Origin: an uncultured Oscillospiraceae bacterium
GTDB taxonomy: Bacteria > Bacillota > Clostridia > Oscillospirales > Oscillospiraceae
Length of the DNA stretch: 64,000 bases
Direction: 5' to 3'
NCBI GenBank assembly: GCA_934561515.1
Contig: CAKTGM010000002.1
Span: 45,384-109,383 of the forward strand
Under the pieces are notes generated by a model. The model saw nothing but the letters and a program-made list of their open reading frames with translations, made no database searches and was not told the DNA's origin. Positions 54,397 through 56,481 of the stretch are shown here, piece by piece (the stretch's first letter is position 1; every line of letters starts with the position of its first letter). A program made the position numbers and the translations under genes.

Positions 54397-55293
54397 ATGA
54401 ACAAAACGAAGATCGCCATGATCACCGTCTGCGGACGGCCGAACGTCGGCAAGTCCAGCCTGACCAACGCCCTTGTGGGCGAGAAGATCGCCATCGTCTC
54501 CAACAAGCCCCAGACCACGCGCAACCGCATCTACGGCGTGGTGAACCGCGATGATACGCAGTATGTGCTGCTTGATACGCCGGGCTTTCACAAGGCGCGC
54601 AACCGCCTTGGCGACTATATGGTGAAGGTAACGCGCGAGTCCATCACGGACGTGGACGCGGTGCTGCTGCTCGTCGAGCCCGTGCCGCACGTCGGTATCC
54701 CTGAAGCGGAGCTCATTGAAAAGATCAAGGCCTCGCACCTGCCGGCCATTCTTTGCATCAACAAGATCGACACCATCGAGCGCAAGGACGACCTGCTTGC
54801 CGTCATCGCGGCCTACAGCGAGGCCTATCCCTTCGACGCCATCATCCCCATCTCCGCGCGCACGCACGAGGGGCTGGAGGAGCTGATGAGCGAGCTTTCG
54901 AAGTACGCCGCCGAAGGCCCCCAGCTTTTCCCCGACGGCATGACGACCGACCAGCCCGACCGTCAGGTCGTGGGCGAGATCGTGCGCGAGAAGCTGCTGC
55001 GCAACCTCGATAAGGAGATCCCGCACGGCACGGCCGTCGAGATCACGCGCTTCATCGAGCGCGACGACGAGGTCATCGAGGTCGACGCGACCATCTACTG
55101 CGAAAAGGCAAGCCACAAGGGCATCATCATCGGCAAAAACGGCGCGATGCTCAAAAAGATCTCGACCGAGGCGCGTCAGGACATCGAGCGCTTCATGGGC
55201 ACGAAGGTCTACCTCGAAACCTGGGTCAAGGTCAAGGAAAACTGGCGCGATAACATGAATTATATCCGCTCATTCGGCTACGACGAGCAGTAA
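54397..55293 (+). CDS. era: GTPase Era
   Basis: G1 GRPNVGKSSL, G3 DTPG, G4 NKID, and a C-terminal KH domain. Confidence 0.95.
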   Translation: MNKTKIAMITVCGRPNVGKSSLTNALVGEKIAIVSNKPQTTRNRIYGVVNRDDTQYVLLDTPGFHKARNRLGDYMVKVTRESITDVDAVLLLVEPVPHVGIPEAELIEKIKASHLPAILCINKIDTIERKDDLLAVIAAYSEAYPFDAIIPISARTHEGLEELMSELSKYAAEGPQLFPDGMTTDQPDRQVVGEIVREKLLRNLDKEIPHGTAVEITRFIERDDEVIEVDATIYCEKASHKGIIIGKNGAMLKKISTEARQDIERFMGTKVYLETWVKVKENWRDNMNYIRSFGYDEQ

Positions 55294-55446
55294 AAAACGC
55301 GGAAGAACCGATACGCCGGTTTTCCTGCGCGCGCCAGCGGGCCGCCGCGCGTGCGGCGTCATTCGGAGCAAAAGCGGAGAATGCCATAGGGCGGATTCAT
55401 TCCGCCCGTCAATGGAACGATGGGTTCCCGCGCGGCCTGCCGCAAG

Positions 55447-55503
55447 GGACAAACTGGCGCGATAACATGAACTATATCAGAAGCTTCGGCTACGACGAGC
55501 AGT
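55447..55503 (+). pseudogene. Duplicated 3' terminal fragment of era (encodes NWRDNMNYIRSFGYDEQ*), not linked to a start codon
   Basis: 52-57 nt are near-identical to 55237-55293 and differ only at synonymous positions (AAT/AAC, CGC/AGA, TCA/AGC); separated from the live copy by a 153-bp insert. Confidence 0.6.
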
Positions 55504-55725
55504 AAAAAATTTTCCCAGCCATATTGCCGGCGCCTTTCCTCATGCTAAGCATGAGGTGAGGGCAGTGGAAGAAGGATATCTGGCGCTTTTTATGCAGACC
55601 GGGCAGCCGCTATTTTATCTCATGGCGGCGGAAAGCCGATCCTGCGAGAAATGAACGCTGTTCCCCGCGCGCGGGGAGCAGCGCTTCGCGCCGCCGCGAG
55701 CAGAGAAAGGACGTGCTGCGCAGCT

Positions 55726-56481
55726 ATGGAAAAAATCGTCATAAAGGGCATCGTCCTTCGCGCAACGGCGACGAAGGAGGCCGACTACATCCTCAACATC
55801 CTGACCGACACCCTCGGGCGGATCGCGGTCGTTGCGCGCGGCGCACGGCGCAAGGGAAGCCGCGTCGCGGCAAGCTGCGAGCTGCTGGCCTTCTCCGAGC
55901 TGACGCTCTATCAGCGCGGGGGCTGGTACTATCTCGACGAAGCGTCGACGATCTCGCTCTTTGCCGGTCTGCGGCAGGACATTGAGCTTTTGTCGCTTGC
56001 GTCGTATTTTGCCGAAATGACCGAGTACGTCACAGCAGAGGAAGAGCCTGCGCCGGAAGTTCTGTCGCTGCTGCTCAATTCCCTCTACGCACTCGATACG
56101 CTGCAAAAGCCGCAGAGCATCGTCAAGGCGGCCTTCGAGCTCAAGCTCCTCGCGCTCTCGGGCTACGAGCCGCTGCTCGACGGCTGCGCCGTCTGCGGCA
56201 CGCACAACCCAAAGGAGCCGGTGTTCGACGCGCAGCAGGGTGTGCTCTTATGCAGGGAGTGCGCAGCGCACGGCGGGGCGGGACTGCTGCCGCTGGACGC
56301 AGGCTCGTTCGCCGCGATGCGCCATGTGCTCTTTGCAGAGCCCAAGCGGATGCTCTCGTTTTCCCTCTCGGGGGAGACGGAGAAGCGCTTTACCGCCGCC
56401 TGCGAGGTCTTTGCACAGGTGCAGCTCGACCGGCGATTCAAGACGCTGGACTTCTATAAAAGCATCAAAACTGTCAACTAA
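55726..56481 (+). CDS. recO: DNA repair protein RecO
   Basis: N-terminal OB fold and a C-terminal zinc motif CAVCG...CREC; era-recO synteny; start trimmed to MEKIVIKG (weak SD). Confidence 0.8.
   Translation: MEKIVIKGIVLRATATKEADYILNILTDTLGRIAVVARGARRKGSRVAASCELLAFSELTLYQRGGWYYLDEASTISLFAGLRQDIELLSLASYFAEMTEYVTAEEEPAPEVLSLLLNSLYALDTLQKPQSIVKAAFELKLLALSGYEPLLDGCAVCGTHNPKEPVFDAQQGVLLCRECAAHGGAGLLPLDAGSFAAMRHVLFAEPKRMLSFSLSGETEKRFTAACEVFAQVQLDRRFKTLDFYKSIKTVN

Follow-up and report, generated by a model that had tools for sequence, protein, structure and literature searches.

The window analysed here is a stretch of 64,000 nucleotides (nt) from contig CAKTGM010000002.1 (positions 45,384 to 109,383) of an uncultured Oscillospiraceae bacterium. 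Its plus strand carries phoH, ybeY, era, recO and mutS2 in this order, and the 3′ end of era, the gene for the GTPase Era, is present twice. The duplication of the era tail marks the insertion of a non-autonomous mobile element of about 150 nt, which belongs to a large family found in gut Oscillospiraceae, other Clostridia and their phages. With D1 and D2 denoting the first and the second copy of the gene end, the locus comprises the following features.

54397..55293, plus strand: era (GTPase Era, 298 amino acids, aa), the host gene; from the open reading frame (ORF) and its translation, with Pfam domains MMR_HSR1 and KH_2 on an identical protein.
55239..55297, plus strand: D1, the functional era tail with its stop codon and AAAA; from repeat comparison.
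55451..55509, plus strand: D2; its first base is also the last base of the structured scaffold of the element, its frame is intact and it has no start codon.
55726..56481, plus strand: recO, the downstream neighbour, outside the element.

D1 and D2 are 59 nt each, identical at 53 of 59 positions and spaced 212 nt from start to start. Since the repeat starts one A ahead of the codon AAC and extends 4 nt past the stop codon (TAAAAAA), the non-repeated insert between the copies occupies 55298-55450 (153 nt). The initial annotation had given the same insert length, with coordinates shifted by 4 and a spacing of about 210 nt. The functional copy consists of the last 17 era codons and the stop codon (55291-55293); D2 is out of frame with era (offset 212) and runs directly into the native era-recO spacer. 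When the 64 kb were searched with a degenerate pattern of the repeat, two matches were obtained, namely D1 and D2, with none expected from 100 shuffles. Both copies translate into NWRDNMNYIRSFGYDEQ followed by a stop, and all six nucleotide differences fall in three codons and are synonymous (AAT/AAC, CGC/AGA and TCA/AGC), the last two codon switches being multi-step. The duplication with synonymous-only differences, as initially annotated, is thus confirmed.

The insert is a full-length member of its family and not a remnant. The family layout runs from the gene body (L) through D1, a spacer of 0-47 nt, a guide of 11-15 nt and a scaffold of five hairpins (about 130 nt) to D2 and the native flank (R). 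In the window, its parts are the following.

55235..55247, plus strand: 5′ strand of helix P1 (AGGAAAACTGGCG), within the era coding sequence; from the inverted repeat, RNAalifold and the minimum-energy fold.
55298..55313, plus strand: spacer between D1 and the guide; unlike the native flank downstream, with conservation confined to sub-lineages of the element.
55314..55326, plus strand: guide (CGCCGGTTTTCCT), the 3′ strand of P1; complementary to 55235-55247 with one G.U pair.
55327..55448, plus strand: scaffold of five hairpins; from alignments, covariation and a covariance-model match of 121.7 bits.
55327-55342, plus strand: hairpin Pa, the consensus form of which has conserved tandem G.A mismatches.
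55343-55358, plus strand: hairpin Pb.
55360-55383, plus strand: hairpin Pc.
55389-55407, plus strand: hairpin Pd, the most conserved, with the loop UUCAY.
55427-55448, plus strand: hairpin Pe, with a linker and GGGTT between Pd and Pe.
55449-55451, plus strand: ACA after the scaffold.

In the alignment of the era set, a variable spacer is followed by GCCRRTTTTCC at an invariant position, then by Pa-Pe and GGGRCA, and directly by D2. GCCRRTTTTCC, the era guide, is the reverse complement of era GGAAAAYTGGC, which spans the left boundary of the duplication (GGAA/AAYTGG, the slash marking the boundary); in the window the 5′ strand of P1 crosses this boundary as GGAA/AACTGG. Being the reverse complement of the L/D1 junction, the guide is expected to pair with it in the transcript as helix P1, with D1 looped out, and its 5′ half can equally pair with the start of D2 just 3′ of the scaffold. 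P1 is part of the single-sequence minimum-energy fold, and RNAalifold identified compensatory changes in it across the era set (CG14/UA5/UG1 and GC14/AU3). The helix covaries with synonymous changes of the gene, AAC/AAT going with G/A and the wobble position of the Lys codon AAG/AAA with C/T, and all nine deviations in era P1 are G.U, none being A.C. For the scaffold, an alignment of 72 sequences, which had been fitted to the model, was 96.8% paired compared to 74.2% after shuffling, with compensatory changes at 26 of 31 pairs and a covariation score of 0.53 (0.15 when shuffled, at most 0.11 in slid controls). Some copies persist without whole hairpins (loci L028, L036, L053 and L073).

A covariance model, R1, was built solely from era-linked scaffolds, and metagenome and viral contigs were scanned with the Pd hairpin motif and then with R1. 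The matches in metagenome and phage contigs comprised 131 further scaffolds at more than 50 different targets, and the structured RNA family is large and absent from Rfam. Direct repeats of 30-201 nt (median 58) flank about 65 of the 115 matches analysed, and in the copies so flanked the start of D2 lies no more than about 2 nt from the end of the scaffold. Of 56 distinct targets, 29 show perfect complementarity over 9-15 nt between the guide and the sequence spanning the left boundary of the repeat; the same comparison shifted by 45 nt gave 0, and that with the R flank gave 1. Neither the guide complementary to the junction, nor the covarying five-hairpin scaffold, nor the family figured in the initial annotation.

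The targets are conserved housekeeping genes. By Pfam they include RNase III (rnc), AsnA (asnA), PolC (polC), AlaRS (alaS), PheRS-beta (pheT), PGI (pgi), GDH (gdhA) and an ABC permease, and by inspection LepA (lepA), PrfC (prfC), RNase HI (rnhA), V-ATPase D, phage baseplate genes and an rRNA/tRNA operon. About 30 copies are co-oriented with the gene and duplicate its 3′ end, and about eight are antisense and duplicate the 5′ end; the gene body lies on the guide-target side in both. In two species R1 also matches just 3′ of mutS2, the tail of which is duplicated with a spacing of 172-176 and accompanied by a different guide, GCCCTCGCCGT. This guide matches ACGGCGAGGGC across the left boundary of the mutS2-tail duplication and covaries with a Tyr/Phe codon change. 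At L037 the R1 match is inverted and lies upstream of era, the 5′ end of which is duplicated. Elements also occur in tandem arrays or with a truncated second unit, and a chimeric one joins two loci. The chimeric scaffold (L139 1978-2108, L143 4861-4991) is located directly 5′ of recO, after an unrelated membrane-protein gene and before an era-tail fragment; it combines a 5′ half of one type with a 3′ half almost identical to the era-type scaffold of L019, as if two elements had recombined and thereby rearranged the locus.

Further arrangements were observed among the copies. In the sub-family of L154, L165, L168, L169, L170 and L175, the 5′ strand of P1 starts at the host stop codon (TAG/TAA), D2 is reduced to a few bases and the looped-out segment is an A-rich 3′ untranslated region (UTR) carried with the element. 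Nearly identical scaffolds separate genes of a phage baseplate module in L218 (2734-2861 and 3305-3432; also L120, L201, L225 and L231), where just 7-13 nt around overlapping stop/start codons are duplicated. Two scaffolds (L149 601-741 and L178 3947-4087) lie in the tail of an rRNA operon, between 5S rRNA and tRNA genes of the opposite strand, and at these two copies a flanking duplication was not detectable.

To compare filled and empty alleles, 80 era loci of related Oscillospiraceae species were retrieved, the nearest Era being 99% identical. In about 20 of them, the era tail of the species itself occurs again 142-220 nt downstream, with mutually homologous inserts, and L028 has three era tails and two inserts. 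The insert is absent from the closest relatives, L001-L006. In Hominicoprocola fusiformis, strain L007 is filled and strain L009 is empty. Contigs encoding exactly the Era protein of the window comprise nine filled ones, 100% identical to the window from era to recO, and an empty one, L239; the distance from the era stop codon to recO is 432 nt in the filled alleles and 220 nt in L239. The empty site sought among relatives was thus found twice within a species (L239 against nine filled contigs, L007 against L009), and the duplication is not a constant feature of the group. The initial description of the insert as a remnant or a miniature element holds for the mobile miniature, given filled and empty alleles within the same species and more than 50 other targets, and fails for the remnant, the insert being full-length. 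A larger intact element, which had also been anticipated at this site, was found in none of about 90 related loci.

Two contigs illustrate how the alleles of this species are mixed: L239 (compared with the window from 55110 onward) and L241 (from 56210 onward) match the window exactly as far as an abrupt point and diverge by 8-10% beyond it, a pattern that represents mosaic recombination tracts within era and recO. In a comparison with species-level relatives, the background divergence of 4-6% would mask a co-conversion tract beside the element; the conspecific empty allele shows a large recombination tract. Across the insert-bearing species, the offsets between D1 and D2 occur in all three phases and indels are located in hairpin loops, which rules out a frameshift, read-through or a small ORF using D2.

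The era-recO interval varies in other respects too. In the H. fusiformis clade (L007 1347-2504, L009 4898-6048, L050 and L001) it contains an extra segment of about 1.1 kb, which begins with gaaggaaaaacatgtccgataaga and has no long ORF, and in other clades it holds a gene for a membrane protein resembling lipoteichoic acid (LTA) synthase (L024 4884-6686). Over all 80 loci, the gap contained only the insert or unrelated genes such as the latter, and no integrase. Between D2 and recO, the window has a conserved small ORF (55556-55654, plus strand, about 25-32 aa) with the motif Y-x-LF-x-TG-x-P-x-FY-L and equivalents in L015, L019, L031, L037 and L045. It had no Pfam match at E≤0.001 and may correspond to the small gene between era and recO in Bacillus.

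The relationship between the two gene-end copies was assessed across the family. In 20 era D1/D2 pairs, 49 codon differences are synonymous and 14 non-synonymous (about 16% synonymous would be expected by chance), all non-synonymous changes being in D2, and 33 other non-redundant tail pairs gave 72 and 20, respectively. In 27 of 32 cases the frame of D2 is intact and unchanged in length, also where nucleotide identity is down to 81-89%; in several lineages D2 contains premature stops or radical changes. Both codon haplotypes of the window (AATTATATCCGCTCA and AACTATATCAGAAGC) serve as the sole functional era tail in close empty-site relatives. These observations bear out the earlier proposal that both tails have been under coding selection in different lineages. 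The haplotype of D2, in which the codons AGA AGC TTC (window 55475-55492) form the 8-bp palindrome GAAGCTTC with a HindIII site, is natural and not engineered, because it is also the native era tail of L001, L003, L006 and L009. A Tyr-to-Asp change (TAT to GAT, giving GATATC) is found in D2 of L030 (4376-4429), L050 (903-956) and L064 (2050-2103); its occurrence in three different scaffold sub-families suggests either convergence or a hotspot.

D1 and D2 often cease to resemble each other 0-6 nt past the stop codon, although their coding parts are 94-97% identical. D2 is followed by the native flank (0.93-1.0 identical to empty sites), and D1 by a sequence unrelated to it (0.35 against the empty-site flank). 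Such limits and flanks fit a unit that has travelled between lineages, with homology confined to the conserved coding sequence. At L078, the functional tail reads GYNEE and the displaced one is GFNEE, the native tail of the clade. The idea that the element carries its own replacement gene end is therefore plausible for cases such as L078, yet not proven, since the incoming copy is inconsistent among loci and homologous recombination between lineages, which is rampant at this locus, can give the same pattern. Synonymous-only divergence is real and general, yet it is no proof of active homing.

Considering all these data together, we lean towards a reading in which the insert is a member of an approximately 150-nt mobile family whose guide-plus-scaffold RNA specifies homing by an unlinked enzyme and which enters its site along with a gene-end copy; we are less sure of the specific mechanism than of the identity of the element. 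Under this reading, the RNA would be the specificity determinant of homing run by a trans-encoded or host enzyme, and the guide would base-pair across the target junction in the conserved coding sequence. The element would be copied or integrated at the junction together with the gene-end copy, either by target-primed or annealing-dependent copying of an RNA that includes the gene-end flank, or by Campbell-type recombination of a unit of gene end, guide and scaffold within D. The host gene would remain intact, and one gene-end copy would be displaced as an untranslated duplicate. Precise loss via D1 x D2 recombination could regenerate empty sites, sometimes with swapped tail codons, and re-invasion from other lineages, along with ordinary homologous recombination, might make the D1/D2 differences mainly synonymous; loss and subsequent re-invasion would close a cycle of homing in which tail codons are shuffled.

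More tentatively, the family may represent a new class of protein-less, RNA-programmed homing elements. In this possible but rather doubtful extension, the scaffold of about 130 nt and the 5′ guide of 11-15 nt would bring an enzyme acting in trans, possibly one of the host, to a junction within a conserved gene and insert with the gene-end copy, the guide being naturally reprogrammable and the system distinct from CRISPR, OMEGA, bridge-RNA and intron systems.

Several observations weigh against guided homing. Homologous recombination breakpoints adjoin the element in the species of the window, so that synonymous D1/D2 divergence need not involve active homing, and the nearest empty relative is closer to D1 in four cases and to D2 in two to three, leaving the incoming copy inconsistent. 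No reverse transcriptase (RT), nuclease, integrase or recurrent neighbouring protein family occurs in about 230 loci. The target of the guide is still intact in filled alleles, and therefore the guide alone cannot tell empty sites from filled ones. Beyond the perfect guide core, there is no family-wide excess of G.U over A.C, which limits the RNA-level argument to the era set. Scaffolds at least 88% identical always share guide and target; near-identical scaffolds with different guides, which would indicate recent retargeting, were looked for among the copies and none were found, so that nothing points directly to a recent move to a new site or explains how new guides arise. Finally, phage L218 and the L154/L165/L168 sub-family have a D2 of 7-13 nt or almost none.

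Some of these observations would suit a passive structured RNA at the 3′ UTR or gene boundary, acting in cis (e.g. in protection or processing of mRNA ends) and arising rarely per gene. The duplication would then be a by-product of unequal crossing-over or tandem duplication, patchiness and synonymous differences would result from recombination and repeated precise loss, and there would be no active guided mobility today. Such an RNA would need no linked partner enzyme and would not be expected to leave near-identical scaffolds at different targets; pairing in P1 seems to be under selection in cis at the RNA level, recombination breakpoints lie near the element in conspecific contigs, scaffold sub-families roughly track host clades and most copies are co-oriented with the gene and directly 3′ of it. 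However, one homologous scaffold is common to more than 50 unrelated targets, phage structural modules and an rRNA/tRNA operon among them, and each target has a perfectly matching guide of its own, which requires movement plus re-specification of the guide. In addition, about eight copies duplicate the 5′ end of a gene to which they are antisense, so that a 3′-UTR function is not general, D2 at 81-89% nucleotide identity still has an intact frame of the same length, and no known UTR function needs a duplicated gene end. We consider a purely passive RNA unlikely.

Less likely still is an intron-like arrangement, in which D1, spacer, guide and scaffold would be removed from the transcript, by self-splicing or with the aid of a protein, between the L/D1 and scaffold/D2 junctions. 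The guide would act like the internal guide sequence (IGS) of group I introns, forming P1 with the end of the 5′ exon and the intron start and P10 with the start of D2, and since spliced and unspliced mRNAs would encode the same protein, D2 would be kept under coding selection. The order of pairing is that of an IGS, with the 5′ part of the guide complementary to the start of D (the start of the 3′ exon) and its 3′ part to the end of L; an intact D2 in 27 of 32 cases, synonymous-biased divergence and conserved housekeeping targets, as for homing introns, agree with it. Against this stand the lack of a match to Rfam Intron_gpI, group II or any ribozyme family even at E≤10 (window and 12 other loci) and a consensus of five separate, independent hairpins, whole ones of which are missing in copies that persist. 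Although a junction-spanning pairing is present, just 6 of the 20 era copies have a U.G pair at the junction, and the last bases of the element are ACA, GCA, AAA and similar, with no terminal G. Head-type copies antisense to the gene show the same synonymous bias, and hence splicing of host mRNA cannot be its general cause; D2 with premature stops or radical changes in several lineages does not agree with splicing either. A group II intron is rejected further by the size of about 150 nt and the absence of an RT nearby.

A remnant or cis-mobilisable derivative of an integrase-driven island, with D1/D2 as attL/attR of a tyrosine or serine recombinase that targets and restores the era 3′ end, is very improbable: the insert does lie between direct repeats at the 3′ end of a gene, sites occur both empty and filled and the functional tail of L078 differs from the native tail of its clade, but no integrase or larger element occurs in about 90 era loci or beside 131 other copies, the repeats (30-201 nt) differ in length and sequence for every target and appear to have no common core, contrary to the att core initially suspected within the repeat, and covarying hairpins and junction-complementary guides are foreign to att sites.

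Searches for known families and partner genes gave consistently negative results. Rfam 15 (cmscan, E≤10) applied to the window region and 12 further loci produced only chance-level matches over the elements, ARAGORN detected no tRNA or tmRNA, and a scan of the insert for promoters and terminators detected nothing. When all ORFs located up to 4 kb from 115 copies were clustered, no partner protein emerged, only housekeeping and ABC families being recurrent, and likewise no neighbour family recurs around the 131 copies and no recombinase is present in the 80 era-recO gaps, which speaks against integrase-type integrative elements and cis-mobilisable elements (CIMEs). BLAST of the scaffold against annotated phages and plasmids returned one unannotated partial match and otherwise none, and no comparable element is described in the literature searched. 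As far as the searched tools and libraries tell, the family is apparently undescribed and fits no known kind.

Other candidates were rejected on specific grounds. An omega-RNA of IS200/IS605 elements (TnpB/IscB) or a palindrome-associated transposable element (PATE) is not supported by any HEARO, IS605-orfB or RAGATH match, and the guide is antisense to a site lying 30-200 nt upstream; the junction-proximal bases differ between targets, i.e. there is no constant target-adjacent motif (TAM). IS110 bridge RNA does not agree with a single contiguous 5′ guide and no recombinase gene, nor does a miniature inverted-repeat transposable element with the lack of terminal inverted repeats and with variable flanking repeats of 30-201 nt. 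For a diversity-generating retroelement, only three of six differences are at D2 adenines, all are synonymous and the loci have no RT. In a retron, the non-coding RNA would lie within the inverted pair; here the pair formed by junction and guide encloses the gene end, not the scaffold, and no RT is adjacent.

If the guide does direct insertion, the family would be a further natural solution to RNA-programmed DNA insertion, unusually small and sparing the target gene by duplication of its end, which would matter for the biology of mobile elements and perhaps for tool development. On a conservative view, too, it accounts for recurrent "pseudo gene ends" in genomes of gut Clostridia, otherwise ignored by annotators, as well as for abrupt multi-nucleotide switches of synonymous haplotype and occasional amino-acid swaps at the termini of essential genes (e.g. 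era, polC and aminoacyl-tRNA synthetase genes). It also supplies repeats that mediate tandem expansions, precise deletions and locus fusions, and defines a large structured RNA family absent from Rfam.

The elements resemble several known systems in part. REP/BIME/REPIN, ERIC, BOX, RUP and Correia elements are likewise small, structured, multi-copy, protein-less and mostly located just 3′ of genes, but they have terminal inverted repeats or palindromic units and target duplications of 0-2 nt, possess no site-specific guide and never duplicate a gene end. With non-long-terminal-repeat (non-LTR) retrotransposons and short interspersed elements (SINEs), which insert by target-primed reverse transcription, the family would share, as far as DNA sequence can tell, a non-autonomous nature, a fixed 3′ junction, a variable 5′ side, a long variable target duplication and probable co-transcription with the host gene. 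In contrast to such elements, the duplicated segments end close to stop codons and their differences fall at synonymous sites, a pattern that simple staggered nicks leave unexplained; to our knowledge, this type of insertion has no bacterial counterpart or RT partner. Mobile group I and group II introns (IGS-P1/P10 and pairing of exon- and intron-binding sequences, EBS-IBS) also have a short internal sequence that pairs with both sides of the junction and covaries with it, reside at conserved housekeeping sites and preserve the host product. Unlike introns, the elements have no detectable ribozyme core or intron-encoded protein, gene function is kept by gene-end duplication and not, as far as seen, by splicing, and the guide is 30-200 nt away from the junction with the gene end looped out.

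Integrative elements at gene 3′ ends, namely prophages, integrative and conjugative elements (ICEs) and CIMEs, are comparable in inserting at a gene end while keeping the gene intact, in leaving a partial gene-end copy as a direct repeat, in presence/absence polymorphism, in plausible precise loss by recombination between repeats and in an occasional swap of the protein terminus. The present element differs from them in having neither an integrase nor an apparent att core, a total size of about 150 nt, a repeat of 30-200 nt peculiar to each target together with an antisense guide, and a covarying multi-hairpin body. From OMEGA and CRISPR-type guide RNAs (IscB/IsrB/TnpB omega-RNAs) and IS110 bridge RNAs it is set apart by the absence of Rfam matches to omega-RNA, HEARO, RAGATH or IS605-orfB families, of a constant TAM-like junction motif, of bipartite target/donor loops and of a nuclease or recombinase nearby, as well as by a guide that is the reverse complement of the upstream junction and not simply flanking DNA. 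With those same systems it shares many orphan copies without a protein gene and, above all, a scaffold joined to a short programmable guide and carried on a mobile element, the use of which in homing would be hypothetical here.

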